Below are positions 9,489 to 63,264 of a stretch of DNA of 63,264 nt, piece after piece. The DNA is taken from positions 1-63,264 of the IMG/VR virus record IMGVR_UViG_3300033076_000316. The stretch is one strand, 5' to 3'. Both the position numbers and the translations under genes were made by a program. Below the pieces are notes generated by a model. That model did not search any database. It saw only the letters and a program-made list of their open reading frames with translations, and was not told the DNA's origin. The first letter of the stretch is position 1. Each line of letters opens with the position of its first letter. Source of the DNA: a virus (taxonomy: Duplodnaviria > Caudoviricetes).

Positions 9489-9853
9489 TAGTTAGCTCCT
9501 AGGTCATTTCTACTACTACCAGAATACCCTGCTGGGCTTCCTGAGTACCAGGAAACTCGAGGGTCAGTGTAGACTCGGTCTACTGATACAACGTCTTCGA
9601 TTGTTGGCTGCGTTCTATCTCCCCAGCCAAATCGTGGAGGAAGCATACGAATTTGAGGTAGTGGAGGACGTACCTGCTGTTGAATCTCTGATGCGGGCAT
9701 AGTTGCTGCCATCAGTGCCTGCTGAGTGAGGCGCTCCATGTTTGATGCCCAAGGACCGTTGTAGGTCCATTTCTGTGGACGACCTTCTTCATCGGTCTGG
9801 TTGTTACGCCATGGCTTTGTGTAATCGTAATTGCCGTCAGTAGTCTGTGACAT
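9488..9853 (-). CDS. hypothetical protein
   Basis: ORF track; tightly coupled to neighbours. Confidence 0.75.
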   Translation of the reverse strand: MSQTTDGNYDYTKPWRNNQTDEEGRPQKWTYNGPWASNMERLTQQALMAATMPASEIQQQVRPPLPQIRMLPPRFGWGDRTQPTIEDVVSVDRVYTDPRVSWYSGSPAGYSGSSRNDLGAN

Positions 9854-9854
9854 G

Positions 9855-10382
9855 TTATCTCCAGACTGGCTTTAGGTAGGCTAGTTGATTCATGCGGATT
9901 ACATTTGCTTCCGCAGGGCCATCAGCACGCGTATTGGCCTTACCGTCATTAACTAGGTGAGGTGCTGGAGTTAGTCGAATATCTGGTGCGGAGCGAGGGA
10001 TGCGGAAAACGCCAGCTTCTGGGTCGAACTTAGCCTTCATCTGACGCTGAATACCCTGCTGGTCATTGAACTCTGATGGCCAGAAGTAAGCTGATGGCTC
10101 AATGCGTTCACCCTTGTGGACACCACGCTGGTACGCTTTTTGTCCTACACGGTTCTTAATTGAGTCGAGTAGGCGGTCATCGCGTCGAGAACGAATTGTT
10201 CCTAGGTAGCCGTCAGGATATTCTGCAGATGGAACACGCCCAGTACCAATACGCAGTGAGTCTAGGTCACCACGTGCTACAGGTGTTCCCTGTCCGCCCT
10301 GGTTGTTATAACCGTAAAACCCATTACCGCCAAGTGATTGCCAGTTCTGGTTTGGAGAAAAGTTTTGTACTCCACCAGCCAT
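9855..10382 (-). CDS. hypothetical protein
   Basis: ORF track; AAGGA RBS. Confidence 0.75.
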   Translation of the reverse strand: MAGGVQNFSPNQNWQSLGGNGFYGYNNQGGQGTPVARGDLDSLRIGTGRVPSAEYPDGYLGTIRSRRDDRLLDSIKNRVGQKAYQRGVHKGERIEPSAYFWPSEFNDQQGIQRQMKAKFDPEAGVFRIPRSAPDIRLTPAPHLVNDGKANTRADGPAEANVIRMNQLAYLKPVWR

Positions 10383-10391
10383 TAGCTATCC

Positions 10392-10664
10392 TTATGCTCC
10401 CATAGTAGTTGGGGCTTGCATTCCTGAGTCTTGCTGTACGAAGGTACTCTGTCCAGCAAGAGGGTTTCTCCAGGTGAACATCTTGCCCTTGGTACTATTG
10501 TTGTCTTTAGTAAGCGGGTCTACATGCGCGTGCTCTGCTTGAGCTGCTTCTGCTCCAGAGTCTGGCTTAACAGTAGCAATCTGCGCCATGCCTGCTGAGG
10601 CTGGCTTGCTATTGAACAGCCTACTCAATGGAGCTATGGAGGCAGCAACGTTCATGTTAGACAT
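10392..10664 (-). CDS. hypothetical protein
   Basis: ORF track; AAGGGA RBS. Confidence 0.7.
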   Translation of the reverse strand: MSNMNVAASIAPLSRLFNSKPASAGMAQIATVKPDSGAEAAQAEHAHVDPLTKDNNSTKGKMFTWRNPLAGQSTFVQQDSGMQAPTTMGA

Positions 10665-10673
10665 GCTGGTCCC

Positions 10674-11096
10674 TTATAGGCTAGAAGACTGAATACCTGA
10701 TTCAAAGTTAGGGTTTACGCGTCCCTGTACAGAAGGAACTACACGAGCAGATGCCATGGTAGGACCAACTGATGGGTCAACTAGAGTTGAGCCAGTCTTA
10801 GGCTGAATGCGGTATGAAGCACCGATGTTCTCGATGTTTGCACGGTTAGCCTTACCACCTGCGGTAGGGTCACCTGCCTGTACGTTCTTCTTAGGAACTA
10901 GAGTTCCAGTAAGAGCGGTGTCAACGTGAGCGGCTCCGATAGGAATACGCACGCTTCCAGCTGCGTCAGCTGCTGCATAAGCTTCTTCGTGAGTTGCGTG
11001 GTTACGTGCCATTGATTTACCTGCCGATTCTAGGTGGTTTGATGGGTCACCGTCGCGACGACGCATTGCGTGACCTTTGCTTGCCCATGATGCCAT
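10674..11096 (-). CDS. hypothetical protein
   Basis: ORF track; AAGGAG RBS. Confidence 0.75.
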   Translation of the reverse strand: MASWASKGHAMRRRDGDPSNHLESAGKSMARNHATHEEAYAAADAAGSVRIPIGAAHVDTALTGTLVPKKNVQAGDPTAGGKANRANIENIGASYRIQPKTGSTLVDPSVGPTMASARVVPSVQGRVNPNFESGIQSSSL

Positions 11097-11133
11097 GAGA
11101 ACTCCTTTTGCTTACTACTAGAGTAAGGGATTT

Positions 11134-11430
11134 TTACTGTGCTGTAATAGCAAAAATGATTGCAGAGATTTCGCCGTCTCGGCTGTCAATAGTGGTGAAC
11201 CCTGGCTTACAAGTTAGGTCTAGTCCGCGAGGTGCTACGTATCCACGAGCAATAGCGATGGCCTTAACTGCCTGGTTGACTGCGCCTGCTCCTACGGCAC
11301 GTAGCTTTACAGCTCGGTGCTCATAGATTGCATGTGCAATTGCCGATGCTACAGACTGTGGGTTTGACCCACCAGCAATACGTAGGAACGGCTCTTCAGT
11401 TGATGGTACGGTGGTGATTTCTTCGGTCAC
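11134..11430 (-). CDS. spoVS: stage V sporulation protein S homolog (Alba-like fold)
   Basis: SNPQSVASAIA...AVGAGAVNQAVKAIAIARGYVAPRGLDLTCKPGF closely matches the SpoVS consensus. Confidence 0.92.
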   Translation of the reverse strand: MTEEITTVPSTEEPFLRIAGGSNPQSVASAIAHAIYEHRAVKLRAVGAGAVNQAVKAIAIARGYVAPRGLDLTCKPGFTTIDSRDGEISAIIFAITAQ

Positions 11431-11475
11431 GAGTGTTAGTCCTTAAGTAGTCGTGCCCTGCCTCAACTATTAAGG

Positions 11476-12060
11476 TTACAGTGAATCCCTATACTTAGGG
11501 TCTTTAACTTGTTCTACAATGGCTTTTTCTATTTCGCCTGTAATTGAGCCTGACGCTAGTCGTGCGAGAGCGTAAGAGTCTGCTGCGTTGTCGTCATTGA
11601 ACTCGATTCCCCAACGCTTGTAAATCTGCATGAGCATCTCTTGCTTCTTGGCATTACCCTTGCCTGCAGCGTACTTCTTCAGGGTCATTGGTGGAACCTG
11701 TAGTGGAGTTCTGCAGTGCTCCACTAGAGTATCCTCGAACTGGTCCCATAGGGTCAGCTTTACGGTGGCTGCGAGCTCGCCCAGCACCAAAGCTGAATGA
11801 CTGGCAAGAACTGTTCCTTCCATGGCGATGTCATGAAATGTATGGCCTTCTAGTGCCAACCATATAATTTTTTCACGCAGCCAGTAGCGGATATCCGCTA
11901 GTCTTCGCACACCCTTGTAAGGAGACTTATAGACCCAGGTCTCGTAGCACTCAGGTCTATCTACGTTTAGTGCGGTAACAGCAAACCCAGTCAACGACTG
12001 GTCAATGCCAATCGCGACTGGGCCTGGGAGGAGTCCTCCATCAAATACTTTTTCAGCCAT
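11476..12060 (-). CDS. ruvC: RuvC-like Holliday junction resolvase
   Basis: IGIDQSLT, AMEG, PPMTLKKYAAGKGNAKK, DDNAADSYAL. Confidence 0.88.
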   Translation of the reverse strand: MAEKVFDGGLLPGPVAIGIDQSLTGFAVTALNVDRPECYETWVYKSPYKGVRRLADIRYWLREKIIWLALEGHTFHDIAMEGTVLASHSALVLGELAATVKLTLWDQFEDTLVEHCRTPLQVPPMTLKKYAAGKGNAKKQEMLMQIYKRWGIEFNDDNAADSYALARLASGSITGEIEKAIVEQVKDPKYRDSL

Positions 12061-12604
12061 TCACTGATTCTAGTACTGGCAGGTCTGCCATGTCTTGCAA
12101 ACCTATGATAGGAACGTTGTAGTTTCCCTTGCCGTATGGAGCCAGGTATCGAATGTCTACGCAGTCTCGACCGTATGCCCATCCAACTGCACGGAATGCT
12201 GGTGCTTTGTAACCGTCAGCTGGTGAACGACGAGTCTTCTCTTCTGGCCCACCTACGATAAGGATGTAGATTTCATTAGGGTCGTCTACGCCTTCTTTAA
12301 ACCGTAGTGAGTACTTTGGATACCCAGGAATGTTCTTGGTAAATGAATACCGAATCTCGTAACCTGGAATGTCCAACTTGTTCTTAAAAGTGTTGACGTG
12401 TGGCTCAAAGTCCTCCATGCCCATCATGCGAGCAGCTGCCAACTCAGACGCTGCACAAATCATGTGCTGCCAGGTCTCCCAGATATCGCCTTCGCTATAG
12501 TTGCGGTTACGCTCTGGCTGTCCCATCATAGGTAGCTGTCGCTCAAATCCAACACGGGCGGCAATTGCTTCCTCCATAGGAGTAAGCTGGTATACCCATG
12601 CCAT
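12053..12604 (-). CDS. hypothetical protein (possibly degenerate PD-(D/E)xK nuclease fold)
   Basis: SELAAA...LDIPGYEIRY pattern; weak match. Confidence 0.4.
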   Translation of the reverse strand: MAWVYQLTPMEEAIAARVGFERQLPMMGQPERNRNYSEGDIWETWQHMICAASELAAARMMGMEDFEPHVNTFKNKLDIPGYEIRYSFTKNIPGYPKYSLRFKEGVDDPNEIYILIVGGPEEKTRRSPADGYKAPAFRAVGWAYGRDCVDIRYLAPYGKGNYNVPIIGLQDMADLPVLESVNG

Positions 12605-13164
12605 TAGAATGTCTCCAGCTCTTGAGCTAGGTGCATTGCAAAGTCAATAGTGCTGTGAAGGACCTCTAGTGAGGATTCATTATTGATGTGAGAAGTAAAG
12701 TGGTAGTCATCTAGGTCATGCTCTGAGATGTGGGAATTTACTGCCTCAAAACCCGTACGATTCACACGCCAAAGTGCTCCCTGTGCTTCTATAACAGCAT
12801 CTGCTTCGTTCTTAAACCGAACATCAGCAAACACTACCTTGTCGTACTTGGCAGCTTCCTTCATAGCAAGGTCAATCCAAACGTTCTCACCGAACATGTT
12901 GCGACCTACTTCTGTACCCATACGCTGTAGTAATCCACGAACATCGGGGCTATCTACCTTAAGGCTCTCCCAACCAAGACCGTCTACAGCCTGTGCGAGG
13001 GAGACTCCCTGCATATCTGCAATCTCAATTTTAGGGTCTAGGAGATATAGAGCCTTACGCATAGGGTCAGCAAAAGAAATTTTGGTAAACCCATAGTTTG
13101 AGACTAGGTAGTTTGCTACCGTATCCTTGCCGCTTCGAGCGTACCCGCTTAGTCCGATAATCAT
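12604..13164 (-). CDS. deoxynucleoside monophosphate kinase
   Basis: MIIGLSGYARSGKDT P-loop, SFADPMRK, LQRMGTE, DVRFKNE, HISE. Confidence 0.92.
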   Translation of the reverse strand: MIIGLSGYARSGKDTVANYLVSNYGFTKISFADPMRKALYLLDPKIEIADMQGVSLAQAVDGLGWESLKVDSPDVRGLLQRMGTEVGRNMFGENVWIDLAMKEAAKYDKVVFADVRFKNEADAVIEAQGALWRVNRTGFEAVNSHISEHDLDDYHFTSHINNESSLEVLHSTIDFAMHLAQELETF

Positions 13165-13184
13165 GTGTGCCCTCCTCTTATTTG

Positions 13185-15874: not shown

Positions 15875-16181
15875 TAAGTTTGTTCCACTGTTCAAGGAAG
15901 TCGGTCTCCAAAAGAATGACGTAGTCTTCGCCATTCAGGTGGATGCCGAATACTGGCAATCGACCATCCATGATTGCTTCATTGGTAATCTTTTCCAATT
16001 CAGCAGCTGAGATAGTCTTGGTCTTTTTCCCTGTCCATTTATGTTCGATGAGTAACTGGCTGTTACGTACATCGCCTTTGCGAGACCAGAAGGCCCCAGA
16101 AGCTGCCGTGGTTTGCCCTCCAATGGCTTTTGCGAGACGTTTCTCGTGCTTCTGAGACTGCTTCTGACCTTCACTCTTCAC
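15864..16181 (-). CDS. Hjc-like PD-(D/E)xK endonuclease/resolvase
   Basis: HEKRLAK...SGA...KGDV...LIEHK. Confidence 0.7.
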   Translation of the reverse strand: MKSEGQKQSQKHEKRLAKAIGGQTTAASGAFWSRKGDVRNSQLLIEHKWTGKKTKTISAAELEKITNEAIMDGRLPVFGIHLNGEDYVILLETDFLEQWNKLNEI

Positions 16182-16390
16182 TAGATAGTGGCCTGTTCGA
16201 TTACAATCTTGGCCACGTTATAAGCAAACTTTTCTTGCTGAGTCCATGCCTTTCGAGCCTCTACGTCCAATGCTCGTAGAATCTCGACACGAAGCTCTTC
16301 CGCGCCTTCACGGCGAAGCTCCATGTTCATTGACTCTACGTAGCGCTCGTAGGCTTCGTGGTCAATTGACAGTTCATTCATCTTACTCAT
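16181..16390 (-). CDS. hypothetical protein
   Basis: ORF track; GGAGGGC RBS. Confidence 0.7.
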   Translation of the reverse strand: MSKMNELSIDHEAYERYVESMNMELRREGAEELRVEILRALDVEARKAWTQQEKFAYNVAKIVIEQATI

Positions 16391-17432
16391 CTTGCCCTCC
16401 TGTAAATGAATCTGGTGTGTTAAGAACTTTATCGCGAAGCTCTGACATTAAGTCTACCTCTTCACGGATAGAGTTTACAAGAGCCTCTTGGCCCTGCCAC
16501 TTACGCTCACCGTAATAAATCCAGCCACCCTTGCGGTCCACAATCTGTTTGACGATTGCCATAGCAGCGATTTCCTTTGAGACGTCAAAGTCGCCAGCCT
16601 CGTAGATGCTGTATGGTGCGAAGTAGAAATCGATGTAAGCAACGCGCTGTGGTGGAGCGGTCTTGTTCTTTAGAACACGAATCTTGATACGCTGACCTAC
16701 ACGAGTCTTGTTAACTCCTGTGCCACCTTCAATCCACTCGTCACGACGAACCTCTGAGCGAGTGAAGAACGCATAGTTCTTACCCTCACCACCAGGAGTG
16801 GTGCGTGGGTCTCCGTGCATCACACCAATCTTCATACGGTACTGGTTGATTACAATACCTAGGATTGGGCGTTCTTCTTCTACTAGAGAGCGCTTCATTG
16901 CTGCTCCAGCCTTACGGAAGAACTTGTTAGTAATAAGAGCGCCACGACCAACGGTCATTTCGTCCATGGCCTTCTCATCTTCAGGACCAGGTACTAGGGC
17001 AGGAAGTGAATCAATAACAATAGCGTCAACAGATTTAGACTCTGCAAAAGCCAAAACTGCATCATAAGCTTCCTCCATAATGTTGGTCTCAATAACGATG
17101 ACACGGCTGGTGTCAACTCCGCACATTGCAGCGTACTCAGGAACCCACTGCTCAGCAGCTACCCATACAGTAGTGTGCTCTGGGTCTCGCGCTTGGTTAG
17201 CGGCAATAGTCTTTAGCGCGATTGCCGTCTTGCCGTGCGAAGCCTCTCCAATAAGCTCATTCCATTGATTGCTCGGAAAGCCGCCACCAAGGACATAATC
17301 AAAAGTAGTAGAACCAGTAGTAATACGCTTAATAAGGTCAGAACGAACATCTTCTCCAATTACTACTACGTTGTCACCCAGCTTCTTGTTAATCTGGGCC
17401 ATAATCTTGCGTGCTTCAGCGTTAATTGACAT
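16383..17432 (-). CDS. recA: RecA-like recombinase
   Basis: TTGS...GGG, GEASHGKT Walker A, IVIDS, INQ.R.KIGVM.GDP.TTPGG, KNKTAPP. Confidence 0.97.
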   Translation of the reverse strand: MSINAEARKIMAQINKKLGDNVVVIGEDVRSDLIKRITTGSTTFDYVLGGGFPSNQWNELIGEASHGKTAIALKTIAANQARDPEHTTVWVAAEQWVPEYAAMCGVDTSRVIVIETNIMEEAYDAVLAFAESKSVDAIVIDSLPALVPGPEDEKAMDEMTVGRGALITNKFFRKAGAAMKRSLVEEERPILGIVINQYRMKIGVMHGDPRTTPGGEGKNYAFFTRSEVRRDEWIEGGTGVNKTRVGQRIKIRVLKNKTAPPQRVAYIDFYFAPYSIYEAGDFDVSKEIAAMAIVKQIVDRKGGWIYYGERKWQGQEALVNSIREEVDLMSELRDKVLNTPDSFTGGQDE

Positions 17433-17954: not shown

Positions 17955-18370
17955 TTGTGCCTCTTTGGAATGTCGAGTAGACCCATGTCTACGATTTGAG
18001 ATACTGAACCTAGGATTGCTGAGAGTGCAACCTGCTCCATCATGCGACGGCTTTCCTGCCAGATTTCGTCTGGAAGTTCCTTGAGCTCACCAGTCAGATT
18101 ACTTCGCTGGTACTCAACTGCACCTTCTGCAAGTGTATGTGCGTGTGCGTAAAGTAGTGGAATCAGGTAACCAATTCGCTCTGTGCGCTTGTCACTTTCT
18201 TGCTCTTCACGTTCAGCTACCTCGTCACTTAGAGCACTGCATCCTAGGAGCTCTGTAAGAGCATGCCCATTCTGAATTTGCGAGTCTAGAATAAACCCAC
18301 GTAGGCGACTAGTAATGTCGCCAATGCTGAGTCCATGCTTATGCTTATGCTTTTTCTTTTTAGCGAACAT
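17951..18370 (-). CDS. hypothetical protein
   Basis: ORF track; coupled to neighbours. Confidence 0.75.
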   Translation of the reverse strand: MFAKKKKHKHKHGLSIGDITSRLRGFILDSQIQNGHALTELLGCSALSDEVAEREEQESDKRTERIGYLIPLLYAHAHTLAEGAVEYQRSNLTGELKELPDEIWQESRRMMEQVALSAILGSVSQIVDMGLLDIPKRHK

Positions 18371-20373
18371 TACTTTGCCTCACCCCACTTATCAACGATA
18401 TATACCTCAGCTTTTAGTGGAACCTTGATAGAACTCAAGTTGATTCCTTCCATTGCTGACTTAATTGCTTCTGCAGTTTCTTCTGCTCGGTCTTCTGGAG
18501 TAATTGTTACCAATTCATCGTGAACCGTTAGTACTACATTAATGGATGGCTCATTGATAAAGCAAGAGTGTGCACGAACAAGTGCGAGCTTCATGATGTC
18601 AGCGGCTGAACCCTGAATCATGGTGTTGAAAGCCTGACGTTCTGCACGAGAGATTAGCCCCATCTCCTTGCTGTTGAGGTCAGGAATGTATCGACGACGA
18701 CCAAAGATAGTTTCGATAAAAGGGATTGGCCCTGACTGCTTGGCTAGGCGAACAACCTGAGACTTGTATTTAGCAATCGAAGAGAATTCCTTCTCAAAAC
18801 GAGTCAATAGGTCCTTGGCTTCCTTTACAGAACATCCGATAGACGCTGCAATCTTGTCAGGTCCTACACCGTATGAGATAGCGAGAACGAGAACCTTACC
18901 AGCCTTACGGTCTACACCCATGGTGTCACCGATGGTGGTGTAGATGTCTCCTCCAGTCAAGTAGTTGTTTACTAGAACAGGGTCCTGAGAGAACGACGCA
19001 ATGACTCGTGGCTCAATCTGAGAGTAGTCAGCTACAACAAGCTTGTACCCTGGAGGAGCAACGAACAGGTTACGAACCAACTTGCCATAATCTCCCGATG
19101 ATGGGATGTTCTGCAAGTTAGGCTCGCTAGATGAGAAACGACCAGTCTCGGCACCGTGTGCCTTGAAGTTAGTATGTACGCGACCATTGATAAGAAGCGA
19201 GTCCTTCTTAGTAATAGTCTCCTTACCATTGGTAACACGCTTGACCATACCTCCCTTGTAAGGAGTTACATAGGTGGTCATCAGCTTGTTCAAGTCCTGA
19301 TATTCCAGTAGAGCGTCTACTAGTTCGTCTTTACCTCGGTAGTACTCAAGGGCTTCGGCGGAACATGAGTAGTGTGACTCGTTGAGCTCCTCACGGTTAC
19401 GCTGAGCCTCCTGACCCTTAGTGGTCAAGGCAGCCTTGAACTTAGGATTAGGAGTGATACGTGGCTTCTTACCATCTTCTTGAGGAGTAAACAGCAATTT
19501 CTGCTTCGCAGGAACAGAATTAATTGCGAAAGCCTTGCCTGCCAACTTGTAGCATTTTGCTTCGGCTTCTTGTTTACCCTTTTCAATCTCGATAGCCAGT
19601 GTATCGAGAGCTTCCTGGTCAATGTAAGCACCAGTCAATTCCATGTCGCACAGGGCTCCTAGTACGTCCATTTCGAGACGCCAGACCTTCTGCAGGTTCC
19701 CAACAATCTTTGGCTTCAAGGCCTTGTAGAGGTCCCAGGTGAGCGCTGAGTCAATGCCTGAGTAGTTAGCGACCTCTGAGAATGCATGAAGCGCAACGTT
19801 TTCTCCGACTCCCTTTTCCATGTCAACGCCAAGTTCTCGCTTTACACAGTCTTTAAGTCCTAGGTTGAACTTATTCTGGTTGTTGATGATAAAAGAGGCC
19901 ATCAAAGTATCGAAGTATGGCTTAGCTGGTACACGGCCTTTGTAGTACTTCGCTACAGACTTGAGGTCGAACTTTGCGTTGTGAGCGACCTTGAGCGCAG
20001 GACCAAACATGATTGGTTCAATGGCGTCAAACACCTGGCGTGGAGTTAGCTGGGACGGGGCTTCCCCGAACTTGGCCGTCCACTTACGCTGGTCTTTAGA
20101 GTAGTGAGACTCAAGGATAGGCTTGCCGTTCTCAAGACGGCGAAGTCCCTCAGTCATTAGTGGCTTATCCCAGCCAGTGAACTCGCCGTTAGGGTGACCC
20201 ATAGGGATAACGTCTGTGCGACCCTCAGTCGCAAATGAAATCCAGCAAACGTCATTGATTACTGGGTATAGGCGGTTTTCGCCAATAGTCTCTACGTCCC
20301 ACGCAAAAGCATCGACGTTCTTATACGCAGCTACAAACTCGGCTAGCTGCTGTGCCGTTGTAATGATATTCAT
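18370..20373 (-). CDS. polA: family A DNA polymerase with 3'-5' exonuclease
   Basis: DVET, HNAKFD, TGRFSSSEPNLQNIP, ADYSQIE, YG, AFNTMIQGSAADI, VHDE; start at ATG 20373 after GAGGGCA. Confidence 0.97.
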   Translation of the reverse strand: MNIITTAQQLAEFVAAYKNVDAFAWDVETIGENRLYPVINDVCWISFATEGRTDVIPMGHPNGEFTGWDKPLMTEGLRRLENGKPILESHYSKDQRKWTAKFGEAPSQLTPRQVFDAIEPIMFGPALKVAHNAKFDLKSVAKYYKGRVPAKPYFDTLMASFIINNQNKFNLGLKDCVKRELGVDMEKGVGENVALHAFSEVANYSGIDSALTWDLYKALKPKIVGNLQKVWRLEMDVLGALCDMELTGAYIDQEALDTLAIEIEKGKQEAEAKCYKLAGKAFAINSVPAKQKLLFTPQEDGKKPRITPNPKFKAALTTKGQEAQRNREELNESHYSCSAEALEYYRGKDELVDALLEYQDLNKLMTTYVTPYKGGMVKRVTNGKETITKKDSLLINGRVHTNFKAHGAETGRFSSSEPNLQNIPSSGDYGKLVRNLFVAPPGYKLVVADYSQIEPRVIASFSQDPVLVNNYLTGGDIYTTIGDTMGVDRKAGKVLVLAISYGVGPDKIAASIGCSVKEAKDLLTRFEKEFSSIAKYKSQVVRLAKQSGPIPFIETIFGRRRYIPDLNSKEMGLISRAERQAFNTMIQGSAADIMKLALVRAHSCFINEPSINVVLTVHDELVTITPEDRAEETAEAIKSAMEGINLSSIKVPLKAEVYIVDKWGEAK

Positions 20374-20394
20374 GATTGCCCTCAAGAAAGTATA

Positions 20395-23806: not shown

Positions 23807-24776
23807 ACGCCATTTCACCGAGGATAGAAGGTTTTGCGTTTTGAATGCCCCACGCAATCTCCTCATCGGTCATATCGCCTGGGTCTTTCTTACCACTATC
23901 ACCATAGTTGAAAAAGAACAAATTTAAACCGTATTTACGTGCAGTAATACGCAGTTCATCTGAAGCCTTCTTGCCAGCAGAATCTAGCTTTGGGTTGTCG
24001 AGGGCGCTGATGACTCGCTCCGAGTAGCGGATGAGCTTGAGCTGTTCCTCACTAATAGATGAACCGCAAATAGCCACAGCCCCATGAATACCAGCGGACC
24101 TAAGCCGAACACAATCAAGAGGAGACTCAACGATGACAACTACGTCTTCTTTCTGGTTCTCGATGCCGAACAATGTCTTAGACTTCTGAAGTCCTGCAGG
24201 GCGGTTGAAGAAGGTGCGGTGAAGCGTACCCTTCTCCTGCCAGCCCATGAGACGGTTAAAGTGAGGTTCCCTTAGTGGAAGAATCCACGTAGCCTTCTTT
24301 GCGTCCCAGAGCAATCCGTACTCAGCTGCTGCTTCTGCAGTAATGTTACGGCTGGCAAGTGCGTCTGATGGTGGCTCCTCGAATAGTGCAAGACGGGCCT
24401 CAGACATCTCTAGTGGCTTAGGTGCTGGCTCTAGACGATTAGGGAGGTTCTTAATCATCTCAGCTAGCTTCTCAATTGGAATAGCCGAAACAGAAGCTAA
24501 CCAGTTCTGAGCTGCGGGATAGTCGTAGCTGTAGTCCTTGCCCCAACCCTGAACGTAGAACTCGTTGATGTCACAGACTAGCTGTGCAACATTGCCCTTG
24601 TAGTTACAGGAGAAACAAATGTGCTGGCCTGAGTCAAGGTTAATCCACCATGAAGGAGAGTTATCCCGCTTACCTGTGCGACGCTCATGCATAGGGCAAA
24701 GTGCGTTAGCTTCTGAGCCATGCTCAGTAGAGTCAATACCTAGTGCTGCAAGCACAGCAATTACGTCAAGAATCAT
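23799..24776 (-). CDS. DNA primase (CHC2 zinc finger + TOPRIM)
   Basis: CPMH...CFSC, VESPLD, LDN...D, KDPGD. Confidence 0.9.
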   Translation of the reverse strand: MILDVIAVLAALGIDSTEHGSEANALCPMHERRTGKRDNSPSWWINLDSGQHICFSCNYKGNVAQLVCDINEFYVQGWGKDYSYDYPAAQNWLASVSAIPIEKLAEMIKNLPNRLEPAPKPLEMSEARLALFEEPPSDALASRNITAEAAAEYGLLWDAKKATWILPLREPHFNRLMGWQEKGTLHRTFFNRPAGLQKSKTLFGIENQKEDVVVIVESPLDCVRLRSAGIHGAVAICGSSISEEQLKLIRYSERVISALDNPKLDSAGKKASDELRITARKYGLNLFFFNYGDSGKKDPGDMTDEEIAWGIQNAKPSILGEMAYV

Positions 24777-26029
24777 AGCTTGTTACTCGCATATGGTGTG
24801 CAGAACTTGCAGGACTTTGCCTTGGTCTCATCGTGGAAGCACCCAGTCTCCCACATCCAAGTAATCGAAGTCTCTGATGGTGGGCAGTTACGAGCCTGAA
24901 CAACACGAAGCATACGAATCTCTTCGTCTTCTTCTACGGCATCCAGACCGAGGATTACATCTGAGTCCTGGAAGAATGAGGATGAGTAACCGATTGAGTC
25001 AGCAGAAACCTTTCCACCCTTCATCTTCCAAAGAAGCGTCTGGGTCGAGATAACCACTGGCTTGTTCATACGCTGCGCCATGCGCTTCAGGGCACGAGTG
25101 ATGTTGGTCAGCGCCTGTGGAGTGTTGGCTTCGCCCGTGACTTCGTCGAGCATCAAGTACACACCGTCAACAAAGATAATGTCTGGGTTAAGCTGTTCGG
25201 CCTTTGCCATCAATGCGCTAACAGTCAATCCGTTAACAGCGTCAATCAAGTGGAAGGGCTTAGCGGTCTTGAGCGAGTCAAGCTTAGCTAGCAAGCGGTC
25301 CTCTTCAGCAGTCTGTAGCTTACCGCGTCGGAAACGAGCGTTAGAAATGTGTGCAGACATGGAGAGGAAACGCTGAGTCTGCTCGTGGTTGTTCATCTCG
25401 AAAGACTGGAACATAGGTACCAAACCAGAGTCGTGAACGTTGTTAGCCATCTTCAAGATAATCTGCGACTTACCCGTCTTAGGCGGAGCAATCACGGTAA
25501 TCAGCTGACCGCCCTGTAGGCCAGCAGTTGCTTCGTCAATCTTCTCAAATCCAGTAGGAACACCAAGCATCTTGTTGTTCTGTACGTTCTCATACTCTTC
25601 CCAGAACTTATCTGGGTCAGTAGTGAGGTCTAGGTGAGTTGTGCCAATGATGCCCTGCTCGTTGACCATTGCGACTGTCTTAGTCATCTCGGCCAGGGCG
25701 GACTCGTGGTCGTTGTGGGTTACCTTCTCGATAACCTGCTCGACACCGTTGCGGGTAATCGTGCGACGACGGAACTCGACCATCTTGTCAATTAGATACT
25801 CAATGGTGTCTTCTACACGAAGAACTTTAAAATTAGGAAAGTTATCTACGACTGCTACGGCTGACGGAGTCTCGCGGTAAGTGCTGTAGTGTTCACGAAC
25901 GAACTTCCATACACGACGTAGGTCGTCGTCTACGAACCAGTCGTCTTTAATCCCGCGTTCAATTACAGGAATGATGTTTCGGTCACCAATGACCTTGCTG
26001 ACTAAACGATACTCGTTATCGTGTGCCAT
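24773..26029 (-). CDS. dnaB: DnaB-like replicative helicase
   Basis: GVPTGF, APPKTGKS, SFEM, FVDG, DSD, QAR. Confidence 0.92.
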   Translation of the reverse strand: MAHDNEYRLVSKVIGDRNIIPVIERGIKDDWFVDDDLRRVWKFVREHYSTYRETPSAVAVVDNFPNFKVLRVEDTIEYLIDKMVEFRRRTITRNGVEQVIEKVTHNDHESALAEMTKTVAMVNEQGIIGTTHLDLTTDPDKFWEEYENVQNNKMLGVPTGFEKIDEATAGLQGGQLITVIAPPKTGKSQIILKMANNVHDSGLVPMFQSFEMNNHEQTQRFLSMSAHISNARFRRGKLQTAEEDRLLAKLDSLKTAKPFHLIDAVNGLTVSALMAKAEQLNPDIIFVDGVYLMLDEVTGEANTPQALTNITRALKRMAQRMNKPVVISTQTLLWKMKGGKVSADSIGYSSSFFQDSDVILGLDAVEEDEEIRMLRVVQARNCPPSETSITWMWETGCFHDETKAKSCKFCTPYASNKL

Positions 26030-26047
26030 GTTTGCCCTCTATCTGTT

Positions 26048-26464: not shown

Positions 26465-26780
26465 CTGTCAAACCGTCAATAACCTCGACCTTTCCGTGCT
26501 TCAATACAAACTCACGGAATAGCTTTGGGTCTGCCATGGCGGCAAACGCTTCCTCATCTTCGACATCTTCTGGAATGTGAATTGAGTAGTGTCCCTCATT
26601 TTCTGCCATGTACTTCTTCACATACTTAGCGTGCTGGCAACGAGCAGAGCGCTGAAAAGCAGGGCAAGTACAGCGAACCTTCTTGCTGTTCTCAGCGTCA
26701 ATCTCTACTTCAAATACTCCGTCAGGTGACAAGAACATTTGAACTGTGCGCCACTCGATATCCATCTTTAAATCCTTCAT
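26457..26780 (-). CDS. SWIM zinc-finger protein
   Basis: CTCPAF...CQH. Confidence 0.75.
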   Translation of the reverse strand: MKDLKMDIEWRTVQMFLSPDGVFEVEIDAENSKKVRCTCPAFQRSARCQHAKYVKKYMAENEGHYSIHIPEDVEDEEAFAAMADPKLFREFVLKHGKVEVIDGLTDD

Positions 26781-27499
26781 TGCTGACGTAGGTCCTCTCC
26801 AATAATACGTACTCGCTTGAATGCTTCATGTGCAAAACTACCCATTGCAGGCCCGTACTTCTTCTCCCAGTCCTCACGACGAACGTTTGTAGTGATGATT
26901 GTTGGTAGAGCCTTATCGTATCGTGCCCTCAGGATTTCGTCAAATGAGGTGTTGTCGTAGTCTGAGCCGTACTCCTTGCCTAGGTCATCTAGGACTAGTA
27001 GGCGTACGTTTAGCCAGTCGTACTTAGAGCGACCGTGGTAGCCCTCCATCTCCTGAAACATGTTCGCCTTGGACTCTGGGTCTGCATCAAACATAGCCTT
27101 CTTACGAGATAGGAACTCTGGGTAGGTCATGTAGTAAACCGCACGAGTATCCATGCCGTAGTCCTTCGATGAGATACCTAGAATGTCTCGAGCCTGTGCC
27201 TCGTCCGTAGGCAGGCGGCGAACAAACTCCATGAGAGTTGTTACAGCGTGAGTGGTCTTTCCAAGGCCTGGGCCACCATCAAATAGGAGCCCTAGTCCAG
27301 TAGTGCCGATTCCGCCAACCTGCTTGATGTTATCTCCAGCAAGTACGTTGTCCATCCAGCGTTCAATAACTGCTGGAAAACTCCCTACCTTCTTTGCGAT
27401 ATCTGAAGGTTCCATTCCCAAGAAGCGGCGAGGAATGTTTGACCCACGAAGTAGCCAATGCTTCTTCATTGGGTCTAGTTCGTTAATGTCGTAAGACAT
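26777..27499 (-). CDS. DnaC/IstB-like helicase loader ATPase
   Basis: GGPGLGKT, LLVLDDLGKE, RYD...PTIITTN. Confidence 0.9.
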   Translation of the reverse strand: MSYDINELDPMKKHWLLRGSNIPRRFLGMEPSDIAKKVGSFPAVIERWMDNVLAGDNIKQVGGIGTTGLGLLFDGGPGLGKTTHAVTTLMEFVRRLPTDEAQARDILGISSKDYGMDTRAVYYMTYPEFLSRKKAMFDADPESKANMFQEMEGYHGRSKYDWLNVRLLVLDDLGKEYGSDYDNTSFDEILRARYDKALPTIITTNVRREDWEKKYGPAMGSFAHEAFKRVRIIGEDLRQQ

Positions 27500-27517
27500 T
27501 GTGCCCTCTTTCTGTTT

Positions 27518-28468
27518 TTACTTTAGTGAAGCTTCGTACTTTGCTAACTCTAGTTTCCCTGACATTGAGTTATCAAATTCTGTGCCATCAGAAGCATAAA
27601 CGTAGTACACGGAGTCCTCGTTGTCAACTTCAGTTGTTCCATTGGCGATTTGCTGCATGTGATTGCTTAGCCAGTTCAAATAAACCTTGTGGCCATTCTC
27701 TGGCTTCTTAGCGATAGACGCAACTGCTGATGAGTCCTGGAACATGGTTCGCATAACTTCCAGTTCCACTGTCGCATTGGTCTTATAGCGATTACGGAAA
27801 GTATTCAGAATCACCTTTAGATTCACGCCGTTGATGGGACCAGTGTTGGCTTTTACGTGCTGGTACATCATCATGCCAAACTCAGTGGCAACATCCTGAG
27901 TAGTCCACTCAGCCTCTGGTCGCATAAGACGATTAACTGGCCTAGCCTTAGCAGGCTTCTTAGGCTTTGCCTTCTCAACCATCTCTGACTCAAACAAACC
28001 AACACCAGGGATGTCATCATCATCCGACCAACGATTAACCACAATCTCCTCCTTCGGGGCGTCAGCCCCTAAGTAAGACGAAGTCTTACTTACTAATGAC
28101 TTAACAATAATAGTCTTATAGCTATTACTACTACCTTGACCAGCTGTGGATGTTTCTGGCTGGAAACATAGAGAAACAGCTTCTTCTTCCTTTGTTTCTG
28201 GCTGGAAACACGGGGAAATCAACCGATAACGGTTCTTGTAAAACTTGTTAAAGTTGCGACGAGTACGCTCAGTTTCTACAAGACCAGCCTCTTCAAGGGC
28301 AGTCATGTCACGCCAAACCGTAGTACGGCTGGTATTGGTTAGCTGCTCTAGCTCTTCAGAAGTAAGGTTGACGTCACCCCAACGGTCAACATGACGGTAC
28401 ATCACCGCCAGTAAATAAAACTCCCTAGGCGTCAGACCTTTGTCCAACGCCTCTTCTGGTACTTGCAT
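27518..28468 (-). CDS. replication initiator protein (N-terminal wHTH)
   Basis: HTH TSEELEQLTNTSRTTVWRDMTALEEAGLV; upstream of the DnaC-like loader; contains internal DNA repeats. Confidence 0.75.
   Translation of the reverse strand: MQVPEEALDKGLTPREFYLLAVMYRHVDRWGDVNLTSEELEQLTNTSRTTVWRDMTALEEAGLVETERTRRNFNKFYKNRYRLISPCFQPETKEEEAVSLCFQPETSTAGQGSSNSYKTIIVKSLVSKTSSYLGADAPKEEIVVNRWSDDDDIPGVGLFESEMVEKAKPKKPAKARPVNRLMRPEAEWTTQDVATEFGMMMYQHVKANTGPINGVNLKVILNTFRNRYKTNATVELEVMRTMFQDSSAVASIAKKPENGHKVYLNWLSNHMQQIANGTTEVDNEDSVYYVYASDGTEFDNSMSGKLELAKYEASLK
28056..28210. promoter_or_regulatory. putative replication origin (iterons, AT-rich tract, hairpins)
   Basis: TGTTTCTGGCTGGAAACA at 28151-28168 and 28193-28210; AT-rich ~28086-28135; inverted repeats at 28071-28091 and 28056-28069. 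Confidence 0.65.
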
Positions 28469-28475
28469 TTGCCCT

Positions 28476-28742
28476 CTATCGTCGCGAAACTACCTGAGTA
28501 ACACTAGCAGGTCGAGTGACGATTTGTGTAGCCACAACCGAAATAAATCCCGCGGCGGGTCCAGCGATGACTAGTGTGAATCCTGTAATTCCCAGTAACC
28601 ATGCGGCGTAGAAGGTTAGAGGCAACGTTAAAATTGCTCTAAGAATTTTTGGGCTAAAGAAGCTTTCTGTAGCCATGTTGATAAATTCGATAGAAAAGCT
28701 AACGGCAATTCCAGAAATAATGATTCCAATTAAAGTGTCCAT
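28476..28742 (-). CDS. small multi-TM membrane protein (holin candidate)
   Basis: 88 aa with about 3 hydrophobic segments at the end of the tail module. Confidence 0.5.
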   Translation of the reverse strand: MDTLIGIIISGIAVSFSIEFINMATESFFSPKILRAILTLPLTFYAAWLLGITGFTLVIAGPAAGFISVVATQIVTRPASVTQVVSRR

Positions 28743-56315: not shown

Positions 56316-59696
<3,381 letters not shown>

Positions 59697-60810: not shown

Positions 60811-61203
60811 TTAGGATAGAATCGCAGTGCCATTGACAGGTACTGAGAAGTGGATAACTAGATTATTTTTATCAATGTGCACTACATCGCCCTCTACAGT
60901 GTTTCCTTCTTGCCAAGTCGTACCACTGCTATCGAAGACAGTGACGTTTGGATAGAAGCGAAGATTATGCCTAATAGTCCATGTGATAGCATTTGCGGAC
61001 TGGACATGCTTATAACCAACAGGTGTCTGACGCTCAACACCAGGAAGAAGAGAAATGTCTACTTCTGGCTGAGCCTCAGTATTTGGAATTCCAAAGTTAG
61101 GGTCTGTGAAACTCGGACCTGTAGGGCCAACCCACGGTGTCCCACCCTGTAGTAATGCGATATCTACTTCAGGTAAAACGGGTGCTGAAGGATTGATTGC
61201 CAT
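60811..61203 (-). CDS. small virion protein (WTIxHNL domain)
   Basis: H.Q....TWTIRHNL..YP.VTV.D. Confidence 0.6.
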   Translation of the reverse strand: MAINPSAPVLPEVDIALLQGGTPWVGPTGPSFTDPNFGIPNTEAQPEVDISLLPGVERQTPVGYKHVQSANAITWTIRHNLRFYPNVTVFDSSGTTWQEGNTVEGDVVHIDKNNLVIHFSVPVNGTAILS

Positions 61204-62261
61204 TAGAGGATGACCTCACTCACACGCTGTGTGAAGAAGTTTCCTCCCTTAATCTCGGTCTGGTCAGAGGTAGCATCGTCTACAGTAGACAATGACCAGT
61301 AGGTACGACCCGCCAAACGAAGAGTTTGGTCCTTAGTAAGAGATAGCGTGGCAGTGTATGTTCCGTCACCGTTGTCATCTACGACCAGAGTAATTGCTTG
61401 GACGACCAATGCACTGCCACGCTGATTTAGGAGATTAGCAAGGAATGACTTGCCAGTGTAATCTCCTGCGAAATCGATACTGGTAGACCATGAACGACCC
61501 TGGTAAGCAGTTAGCTCACCTGCGTCTGTAGGCCATGGTGCTGGAGCATCTCCGTAAGTAGGTACAGGAATGTGAGCACGCTGCGGGTACGAGCGGTCAT
61601 CAACTTCCTGAGGCTTGTACTCTGGCACATAACGTCCAGTAGCCTTTGAGATACGACGCAATGAAACTACGTCAATTTTGTAAAGTCCAACACCTAGCTG
61701 AGCGCACAAGTCTTTATACTGCTGCTGACGGATGTTCATCATCTCAGTCAGCTGACGGTAACGCTCTGCTCGTGGGATAGAGACACCGTCAGGGGCTTGA
61801 ATGTCGATGTCAAAGGCAGCGTCATTAGCCAGTGCGTATAGCGCTAGAGTAGCGGCGTACAAGGCTACTGGGTACTCTTCTACAGGAGGCAGGGTATCAA
61901 CGGTGAGCTTGCGTCCTACGACATCTGTGTGGCCTGCTGTATGCTGTAGCAAAGCGTCGTTAACAATGCTCGTTAGCTCAGCTGCAGTGAAGTAGCGGTA
62001 GTAAGTACCGCTGACAGTAATCTCGTCACCATCTGCAGGTACCTCATTAAACACGACTAGACCAGTAGATTCTTCTACTGAAGTAACGCTAGTTTTATCT
62101 ACACCATTAATCCACGATTGAACGGTAGTTCCATCTAGCGGAGAATAGTGGATGCTAAAACGATTTGTGGTGCCGTCAGCGACAAACTTAGTAACAAAGG
62201 ATTTTCCTAAGTCGCCTAGCTCTACACGTACCCTATCAACAAGGGTGGAAATGGTTGCCAC
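61203..62261 (-). CDS. head-tail adaptor/neck protein
   Basis: RVRVELGD start, YFT..EL, position two genes after the capsid gene. Confidence 0.6.
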   Translation of the reverse strand: MATISTLVDRVRVELGDLGKSFVTKFVADGTTNRFSIHYSPLDGTTVQSWINGVDKTSVTSVEESTGLVVFNEVPADGDEITVSGTYYRYFTAAELTSIVNDALLQHTAGHTDVVGRKLTVDTLPPVEEYPVALYAATLALYALANDAAFDIDIQAPDGVSIPRAERYRQLTEMMNIRQQQYKDLCAQLGVGLYKIDVVSLRRISKATGRYVPEYKPQEVDDRSYPQRAHIPVPTYGDAPAPWPTDAGELTAYQGRSWSTSIDFAGDYTGKSFLANLLNQRGSALVVQAITLVVDDNGDGTYTATLSLTKDQTLRLAGRTYWSLSTVDDATSDQTEIKGGNFFTQRVSEVIL

Positions 62262-62318
62262 AAATCCTCCAAAAACTCTTACATTTATGTTCTCTTATAC
62301 TGCGCCTAAATACAGCAT

Positions 62319-62367
62319 AAAAAAGTCCGTCCTGCTGGTGAGGAGGGCGGGTACCAGCAGGACGGAC
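62319..62367 (-). terminator. intrinsic terminator, 15-bp stem with 13-nt C-rich loop
   Basis: Minus strand GTCCGTCCTGCTGGT-ACCCGCCCTCCTC-ACCAGCAGGACGGAC-TTTTTT. Confidence 0.85.
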
Positions 62368-62380
62368 AGCTTATAGAGGG

Positions 62381-62761
62381 TTAGGCAATCCAGAGATAGC
62401 CAAGACCCTGGAGGTACTGTGCAAGCTCACGAGGGACCTTGTACTTCTGACCTGCTTTGAAGGTGTAAGACTGCGGGGTACCGTTGATGACACCGTAAGT
62501 CATGTCGTCGATGTCTGAGATGGTACGAATAACAATGCTGTCATTGTTAACTGAAACTCCGACGGTCTCAATCTCGTCAATCAAGATTGGAGCGTCTGGC
62601 TTCTTAGGGTCAAACACGTCATTTGCTAGACTGTGCTCTTCCTGTGCGCGTGAGATAGAAATCTCTTCCTTGCGCTTTGCAAGCTCTGCTGCGTTTGCCT
62701 TTGCTGCTAGTTCGGCTGCGCGGCCTGTTGCGTCCTGAGGACTGGTTGGTTTGTTTGCCAT
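62381..62761 (-). CDS. head-associated hypothetical protein
   Basis: ORF track; directly after the capsid gene. Confidence 0.7.
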   Translation of the reverse strand: MANKPTSPQDATGRAAELAAKANAAELAKRKEEISISRAQEEHSLANDVFDPKKPDAPILIDEIETVGVSVNNDSIVIRTISDIDDMTYGVINGTPQSYTFKAGQKYKVPRELAQYLQGLGYLWIA

Positions 62762-62798
62762 GATATTTTCTTCCGTGTATTAGATTTTTGTTTGTGTT

Positions 62799-62824
62799 GG
62801 GAGGGCCCCTTGCGGGACCCTCCC
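62799..62824 (-). terminator. GNRA-tetraloop hairpin after the capsid gene (stabiliser or U-less terminator)
   Basis: GGGAGGGTCCC-GCAA-GGGGCCCTCCC; no U-tract follows. Confidence 0.65.
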
Positions 62825-62842
62825 TTCACGAGGTTTTGGCTA

Positions 62843-63262
62843 TTAGTTGGTGTAAACCTTGTTGATAGCCTGGTCGGTGATGATGCCGAGGCCCCAGATT
62901 GAGTACCATGCAAGAGCGTGCTCACGACCAAAGTCAAGAACACCACCATCGCGTAGCTCAACAGGAAGCGAGATAGCGTGACCGAATGCGTTGTCACCAA
63001 TCATGATTGACTCGTAGACGTCTGCAGTGTTGCCAGTAGCACCGTTGAAAAGACCTGAGGTCTCTCCAGTGTTCTCTGGGTTTCCACCCTGACCTGCGCC
63101 AGTGTTAGCCTTTACAGGAACACCAGTCTGGTCTGCAGGAGCGCCAACTAGACCGTTGGTTGAGTAGGTGCCGTTAGCAGCAAGCTTCTTAACCTGAGTG
63201 GTCTCGATGAATACGACGTCGTATAGACGACCAATCTCACCAAGCATGAAGTTACCTGGAGC
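62843..63262 (-). CDS. major capsid protein, N4-gp56-like (5'-partial)
   Basis: GEIGRLYDVVFIET...G.NAFG...D.GR....AWY...G; frame open to the window edge. Confidence 0.85.
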   Translation of the reverse strand, partial: APGNFMLGEIGRLYDVVFIETTQVKKLAANGTYSTNGLVGAPADQTGVPVKANTGAGQGGNPENTGETSGLFNGATGNTADVYESIMIGDNAFGHAISLPVELRDGGVLDFGREHALAWYSIWGLGIITDQAINKVYTN

Positions 63263-63264
63263 AG

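Follow-up and report, generated by a model that had tools for sequence, protein, structure and literature searches.

Comparison of a phage sequence with its relatives identifies a real, conserved and new structured RNA motif, a hairpin at the end of the capsid-proximal transcription unit that holds a nearly constant loop on a freely changing stem. The alignments establish the hairpin itself, its selection at the RNA level on the sense strand, its conserved loop and its occurrence once per genome at a constant position, together with a variant of the ribosome-binding site (RBS) that is conserved and complementary to the loop. We tentatively read the terminator loop as an anti-Shine-Dalgarno (anti-SD)-like pairing seed, akin to those of RNAIII H14, RsaE and 6C/B11, a reading that we consider quite possible. 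In the proposed mechanism, the hairpin would be both the intrinsic terminator and the 3′ end of the capsid-proximal late transcript, and its loop seed (CCUCC with a GCCC extension) would anneal to G-rich RBSs of the GAGGGC, GGAGGGC or GGGGC type, foremost those of the replisome genes encoding DnaB, PolA, the loader and an HTH protein. Through such pairing, the abundant 3′ ends of the late capsid mRNA would lower the translation of replication genes.

Late 3′-UTR RNAs occur in phage transcriptomes with no function assigned to them in the reported parts of these studies (PMC4933390, PMC10914365), and base-pairing regulators from virulent phages appear, in the portions of the literature drawn on here, to be barely known. 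What the comparison yields is a new structured RNA element for which clear targets can be proposed in a falsifiable form, namely the leaders of DnaB and PolA. If the proposal is true, the capsid message would shut off replication by RNA-based means, and the loop would be a candidate reader for RBS-associated motifs of actinobacteriophages such as the start-associated sequences (SAS) of Cluster K mycobacteriophages (PMC3203893).

The window, that is, the whole stretch of DNA analysed, is an IMG/VR virus record of 63,264 bases with an estimated completeness of 66% and a G+C content of about 47%, and its minus strand holds nearly all of its genes. The capsid gene at its right end shares 78-80% nucleotide identity with the capsid genes of the BRock group of Streptomyces phages, its DNA polymerase is 36% identical to that of the same group, and the nearest cultured relatives are phages infecting Streptomyces. 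Transcription proceeds from the capsid gene through a tetraloop hairpin, a 126-aa gene, the terminator hairpin and a 352-aa gene to further virion genes (Table 1). The product of the 126-aa gene, for which 31 related loci were found, gives a weak, sub-threshold match to the YqbF domain in Pfam. Further along the minus strand (56316-59696), an 1126-aa protein with collagen triple-helix repeats and matches to tail-fibre PHROGs resembles a collagen-like fibre. In freshwater metatranscriptome contigs, word depth over the relatives' capsid gene (62856-63264) far exceeds that over the downstream genes, a difference that neither ranks genes nor proves transcription; two metatranscriptome runs and two others provided only assembled contigs of relatives (at least 85% identity) for the region, and as contigs cannot show RNA ends or levels, no weight is placed on the gap in their cover over the hairpin.

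Table 1. Features of the window discussed in the text, in order of transcription on the minus strand
Feature	Position	Strand	Basis or remark
Major capsid protein gene, 3′ part, running off the window edge	62843..63262	-	PHROG 1357 major head protein, E = 2e-17
Capsid-proximal GC-rich hairpin, tetraloop, no U tract	62799..62824	-	Fold; internal contrast to the terminator
126-aa gene, after the capsid gene	62381..62761	-	ORF; stop 13 nt before the hairpin
Terminator hairpin, 15-bp perfect stem and 13-nt loop	62325..62367	-	Sequence, fold, covariation; covariance model 74 bits
Hairpin arms	5′ arm 62367-62353; 3′ arm 62339-62325	-	Sequence
Unpaired C-rich loop ACCCGCCCUCCUC	62340..62352	-	Sequence; fold
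Conserved loop core CCGCCCUCCU	62350-62341	-	Alignment of 36 distinct hairpins
U6 tract directly after the stem, terminator tail	62319..62324	-	Sequence
352-aa gene downstream of the hairpin	61203..62261	-	ORF; RBS with full GGAGG at 62270-62266
GAGGGC in RBS of HTH (MarR_2-like) protein (27518-28468)	28471..28476	-	Pfam
GAGGGC in RBS of IstB/DnaC-like loader (26777-27499)	27503..27508	-	Pfam IstB_IS21
GAGGGC in RBS of DnaB-like helicase (24773-26029)	26034..26039	-	Pfam DnaB_C
PolA-upstream hairpin, 17 bp, 20-nt pyrimidine loop	20395-20448	-	Fold; just before the PolA RBS
GAGGGC in RBS of DNA polymerase I (18370-20373)	20378..20383	-	Pfam DNA_pol_A
GGAGGGC in RBS of 69-aa ORF (16181-16390)	16394..16400	-	Sequence
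GAGGAGGGC, 9-nt loop complement in dNMP kinase RBS	13169..13177	-	4 nt before ATG
dNMP kinase gene	12604-13164	-	PHROG 139 and Pfam DNMK

The terminator hairpin and its conserved loop

By its sequence and fold, the hairpin is of the intrinsic terminator type and ends the capsid-proximal transcription unit. As in other intrinsic terminators, a GC-rich stem and a U tract stand at the end of the unit, here 13 nt past the end of the 126-aa gene adjacent to the capsid gene, which bears out the initial annotation in placing a terminator downstream of the capsid genes. Its loop departs from the short loops usual in this class (3-8 nt), with 13 nt in the window and 10-17 nt in the relatives, and the earlier description of it as unusually large is sound: a screen of the coding strands in nine related genomes gave 122 terminator-like hairpins, whose loops most often measure 4 nt and fall within 3-6 nt in 86 cases, and the capsid terminator contributes 8 of the 20 loops of at least 10 nt. 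The 111-nt context of the hairpin folds at -45 kcal/mol (z = -6.3), with 0 of 200 shuffles folding as well, and the loop is unpaired in the MFE fold and the centroid fold alike.

Related loci were fetched through the two flanking proteins (31 + 47 = 78 loci), and the hairpin is present at the same place in 72 of the 72 that could be assessed; in two of these the script chose another hairpin, and the terminator hairpin was identified separately. Outside the 72, three loci are cut before the spacer, one has a match starting inside the gene, and in two distant, GC-rich loci the hairpin was not found. The 72 loci collapse to 35 distinct sequences which, together with the window, provide an alignment of 36 distinct hairpins. 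Compensatory changes on both sides are seen in all 14 scored stem pairs, 99.6% of the 466 stem cells are paired (a level that 0 of 500 shuffles reach), and sliding the pairing partner by one column lowers pairing to 43-58%; in some lineages the stems are entirely different. The ten core columns of the loop have a mean identity of 0.967 and a minimum of 0.917; the mean is 0.754 in the stem columns and 0.63 in the 5′ flank. The 9-mer core is kept in 28 of the 36 hairpins and GCCCUCC in 30, and the sole G of the loop is invariant in all of them. Departures from GCCCUCC are found in six sequences and are of five kinds, with one C deleted in one lineage. Behind the stem, conservation is at least 90% in the first three T columns and falls off in those that follow, and the tract is down to 2-3 U in a few relatives. 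Stem covariation around a conserved loop in relatives, the check suggested for the original proposal, is thus clearly present.

Several properties of the alignment bear on the level at which this conservation arises. The sense strand carries 32 G-U wobble cells, which indicates that the fold has been selected as RNA, and the indels in loop and stem are not multiples of three, so that coding sequence is ruled out as the cause of conservation. A covariance model scanned against nine genomes, the window and eight relatives of which six are 98-100% complete, finds exactly one copy per genome (49.9-76.8 bits), the next-best match anywhere else scoring 21.3 bits. Conservation by itself cannot tell DNA from RNA, and the conserved 10-mer could act as DNA, be it as a protein site or as a recombination or packaging signal located inside the terminator. 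Its exact placement in the loop in 36 of 36 distinct hairpins, the selection for a sense-strand RNA fold evident from the wobble cells, and its presence in a single copy per genome, with no second copy of the motif in a comparable context, all count against such a role, to which we give hardly any credence.

Two further hairpins of the clade offer a standard against which the constancy of the loop can be judged. The capsid-proximal hairpin, which is probably an mRNA stabiliser or processing site, has differing stems and an unconserved loop sequence in the relatives, with 4-nt loops in five of the seven that have that spacer. Upstream of PolA, a strong hairpin is found in 69 of 69 distinct regions from relatives (L232-L311), its end lying 18-23 nt upstream of the start codon in 61 cases; 51 of the 69 loops have at least 10 nt, 35 of those being at least 80% pyrimidine, 31 hold CUCC, CCUC or UCCC, and the loop sequences drift between relatives. 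Large pyrimidine loops therefore recur in the clade, and the capsid hairpin, with its GC-rich stem and U tract at a gene end, might be an ordinary terminator whose loop has no sequence-specific role or is merely a large unstructured pyrimidine loop tuning read-through. A loop identity of 0.967 maintained across fully replaced stems, when set against the drifting PolA-upstream loops and the capsid-proximal tetraloops, renders this account very improbable in our view, and the plain-terminator and DNA-site readings both fit the data poorly. As a separate observation made by eye, several genomes show partial complementarity between the terminator loop and the G-rich 5′ arm of the capsid-proximal hairpin.

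A loop that stays near-constant while its stem mutates freely probably recognises something specific. The partner may be a protein, of phage or host origin, acting in termination or antitermination, as a stability factor or as a translational regulator, to which the stem presents the loop in the manner of boxB/N or the MS2 operator. Hairpins bound by proteins classically combine a conserved loop with a stem that covaries freely, a pattern that fits this reading at least as well as it fits pairing, and the loop is retained even where the U tract is weak. We nonetheless judge a protein site unlikely, while giving it appreciable weight: no candidate protein was identified, the 126-aa neighbour offering only its sub-threshold YqbF match, and the complementarity described below would be left unexplained. 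Under the pairing proposal, the 10-nt single-stranded core CCGCCCUCCU would be near-constant because it is itself the recognition sequence, and the stem would need only to pair. The C-rich loop is accessible and conserved, as it is in anti-SD riboregulators with C-rich loops, and, as in small RNAs derived from 3′-UTRs, the terminator is shared with the mRNA and the loop holds a conserved seed.

Loop complements and ribosome-binding sites

The initial annotation had drawn its headline target from a perfect 9-nt complement of the loop before the dNMP kinase gene. The match is exact, GAGGAGGGC occurring exactly twice in the window, on the plus strand within the loop and on the minus strand in the RBS of that gene, but it lies at chance level (9 sites with at most one mismatch in the window against 11.55 expected) and is absent from the RBSs of 34 of 34 distinct relatives, among which GGAGGGC is found in 0 and GAGGGC in 1; the dNMP kinase orthologue of the nearest complete genome has a different RBS. 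This target is wrong. Over the whole window, GAGGGC occurs at 23 sites against 24.9 expected, and raw loop-complement matches were rejected as a significant signal, being at or below shuffle expectation for both the 9-mer and window-wide GAGGGC. Nor was a conserved partner seen for the core at its full length: outside the loop itself, GGAGGGCGG with at most one mismatch has no shared sense-strand site in five complete relatives. The evidence beyond chance is the conservation of loop and stem and the concentration of GAGGGC in RBS windows, not the raw matches.

Six GAGGGC sites had been listed, and all six are RBS sites, before the starts of dNMP kinase, the 69-aa ORF, PolA, DnaB, the DnaC/IstB-like loader and the HTH protein; they lie within the replication module, and none is found at coding-strand structural genes of the window. 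The site near 16390 that was said to match GCCCUCC is the GGAGGGC before the 69-aa ORF, the orthologues of which lack it in three other genomes. Its assignment as the RBS of RecA was rejected, since it is the 69-aa ORF that the site precedes.

The dominant SD sequence in these phages is AAGGAG/AGGAG. Based on gene starts from a simple custom ORF caller, whose crudeness is a caveat on all RBS counts given here, GAGGGC is found in 33 of 1194 RBS windows against 3.2 expected, and is the commonest of the 30 hexamers that share its composition (33 against 18 and 17), though without GGAGG. Over nine genomes, the GGGC-type motif ([AG]GGGC) is present in 73 of 1318 RBSs overall. In a survey of up to 80 relatives per gene, counting distinct RBSs, GAGGGC was found in 30 and [AG]GGGC in 32 of 63 DnaB RBSs, and [AG]GGGC, mostly as GGGGC, in 39 of 66 PolA RBSs. 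Judged by these counts, an RBS variant complementary to the loop does exist and is conserved at both DnaB and PolA, and the notion of an RBS motif of replication genes holds in the form of a GAGGGC/GGGGC variant concentrated in the replication module. At the loader, GGAGGGC is present in 5 of 5 close relatives, and among eight other genomes it is kept in one, merely as AGGGC; at the HTH protein, GAGGGC is kept in 3 of 7 orthologues. As a share of the GAGGNN hexamers in RBSs, GAGGGC accounts for 0/25, 2/39 and 2/42 in three hairpin-bearing genomes. In BRock, the PolA RBS is canonical and GAGGGC is found in 1 of 37 annotated RBSs.

Behind their G run, the GGGC-type RBSs carry a GC that has no complement in the usual 16S 3′ tail and that is the complement of the loop's invariant G and the C adjoining it. 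It is this complementarity to the DnaB and PolA variant for which a protein site would provide no explanation. Conversely, complementarity between loop and RBS typically spans 5-7 nt, fewer than the ten near-invariant positions, and no counterpart in the RBSs exists for the two C's at the 5′ end of the core (GGGCGG in 2 RBS windows against 2.5 expected), both of which speak for the protein. The expectation that the loop would covary with the RBS motif in relatives was not borne out, as loop variants and RBSs give a contradictory pattern: a genome with U before GCCC has GGGCA RBSs and one with C has GGGCG, yet GGGCA also goes with C in the window and in the relative nearest to it. The lineage with the C-deleted loop has no GAGGGC RBS, but its G+C content is low (42%), as is the background (8/380), and the absence is not taken as significant. 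In a duplex-energy scan, the loop formed more strong duplexes than did its composition-shuffled versions (-12 kcal/mol or lower in 0-7% of shuffles). Such an excess is to be expected of a loop containing CCUCC, which can anneal to every strong SD, and spurious ORFs were among the sequences scanned, so the excess was rejected as evidence of specificity.

Pairing between the conserved loop and the conserved RBS variant, repression through that pairing and accumulation of the 3′ end are inferences. The mechanism first suggested for this locus, in which late 3′ ends would shut down replication genes, is a plausible hypothesis that the comparison of sequences partly supports.

The downstream gene and other hairpins

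The RBS of the 352-aa gene holds a full GGAGG, which makes this gene a candidate cis target of the loop. On read-through transcripts, CCUCC in the loop could pair with the GGAGG some 60 nt downstream, in a pseudoknot limiting translation. The full GGAGG is kept at this gene in 9 of 9 genomes compared, as well as in the upstream sequences inspected from related loci, while elsewhere it is found at 9-18 of 65-144 SD-bearing starts per genome (about 10-14%); BRock, which is without the hairpin, has AAGGAG at the corresponding gene; and the pyrimidine, anti-SD-like loops that lie 18-23 nt upstream of the PolA start codon in 61 of 69 regions seem to represent a cis arrangement. By inspection, however, complementarity never exceeds 5-6 nt and does not extend past GGAGG, which leaves the conserved CCGC unexplained. 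The downstream RBS is unchanged in relatives with a diverged loop, the PolA-upstream loops drift in sequence, and the promoter-like conserved blocks between the hairpin and the RBS imply that many downstream transcripts may lack the hairpin. On balance we regard pairing in cis as improbable. These blocks, two in number with a variable small hairpin between them, occupy the minus strand from the terminator to the 352-aa gene (62262-62318). They were considered as a repeated phage promoter, a possibility that was rejected, their composite motif occurring once per genome in three of the four genomes scanned and being absent from the fourth.

The hairpin before PolA could, from its position and loop composition, be a cis translational operator or a weak terminator; many of its loops end in a run that we take to resemble the 16S 3′ tail. 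In an intergenic region of one relative (L112, about 17072-17211; G001, 57072-57211, plus strand), a promoter-like TTGACA-N17-TAACAT is followed by a 12-bp hairpin with a 16-nt loop, which holds CCUCC in a U-rich context and has a U tract after it. We regard it as a candidate for an independent small RNA whose loop is anti-SD-like. In another relative (L127, about 9650-11650; G004, 49.6-51.6 kb), a cluster of small genes, oriented against the majority, has three RBSs with an 8-9-nt complement of that genome's own terminator loop.

Phage T4 has two proteins, RegA and RegB, that act at the RBSs of early mRNAs to shut them off. A bolder version of the pairing proposal, which we think rather unlikely, would make the capsid-mRNA 3′ hairpin of a large clade of uncultured freshwater phages, kin to Streptomyces phages, an RNA counterpart of T4 RegA, a late and abundant anti-SD seed acting on a dedicated RBS variant to silence the genes of DnaB, PolA, the loader and the initiator, RegA and RegB being proteins and the capsid terminator an RNA element. 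The hairpin would then be part of a wider system of hairpins with anti-SD loops, whose members might include the operator-like hairpin before PolA and the promoter-plus-hairpin small-RNA candidate of the single relative.

Known RNA systems and phage parallels

The SAS motif of Cluster K mycobacteriophages is present in 11-19 near-exact copies per genome. It occupies the RBS position of non-structural genes only, and the portion of the work cited here does not decide between an RNA and a protein as its binding partner (PMC3203893). It resembles the RBS variant of the present phages in being a conserved motif at the RBS position, at non-structural genes, with positions that 16S pairing does not explain (PMC3203893). 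It differs in sequence and in its 13-bp length, the variant described here being of 5-7 nt and degenerate, and that portion of the work proposes no partner RNA for it.

The closest functional analogues of the proposed loop are bacterial RNAs. In S. aureus, RNAIII (hairpins H13/H14) and RsaE block initiation by pairing their C-rich loops with SD regions, according to the account used here (PMC3053349). The terminator hairpin shares with H14 an unpaired C-rich loop motif, and the H14 hairpin is itself the terminator, as that account describes (PMC3053349). RNAIII and RsaE, however, are experimentally proven chromosomal small RNAs of a Firmicute, whereas the phage hairpin is the 3′ end of a structural mRNA, has no sequence homology to them and would pair by inference from its complementarity. 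In Actinobacteria, B11/6C represses through C-rich loops acting on G-rich RBSs, and complementarity of at least 6 nt is predictive in the portion of the study cited (PMC10470900). A C-rich loop, G-rich RBSs and an actinobacterial setting, given the Streptomyces-phage relatives, are common to both, while the phage element consists of one hairpin instead of two and has the loop CCGCCCUCCU instead of a plain C run, as far as the cited description of B11/6C extends. The 3′-UTR of icaR mRNA likewise carries a C-rich anti-SD motif that pairs with an SD (PMC3868564), and the likeness lies in a C-rich motif within an mRNA 3′-UTR and SD pairing in cis or in trans (PMC3868564). The icaR motif, as presented in that study, targets the SD of its own mRNA, lies 260 nt past the stop codon and outside the terminator loop, and is bacterial, not phage.

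Searches for known families and for earlier descriptions gave no counterpart within their scope. The Rfam scan of 61800-63264 yielded no family at its gathering score; ctRNA_pGA1 (RF00236) reached 23.9 bits (E = 0.045), below its gathering threshold of 45 bits, and was discarded, the resemblance consisting of a hairpin and a U tract alone. The 6C RNA (Rfam RF01066) gave no match in the window at E up to 10. No description of a phage terminator with a conserved anti-SD loop was found in the literature searched, and the parts of a review of phage small RNAs drawn on here (PMC12197685) contain nothing of this kind. The virulent phage PAK_P3 makes abundant late small RNAs processed from 3′-UTRs, which have no assigned function in the sections cited (PMC10914365, PMC4933390); it differs from the present case in that those sections report no anti-SD loop for its RNAs.

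In BRock, the one cultured outgroup examined, the element itself is lacking. A C-rich loop is seen in the terminator directly after the capsid gene in BRock, GiJojo, Alone3 and pSt2308 (L130, 3375-3470; L312-L314). Three loop variants on the same stem occur among these capsid-gene terminators of Streptomyces phages, which may offer a tractable parallel.
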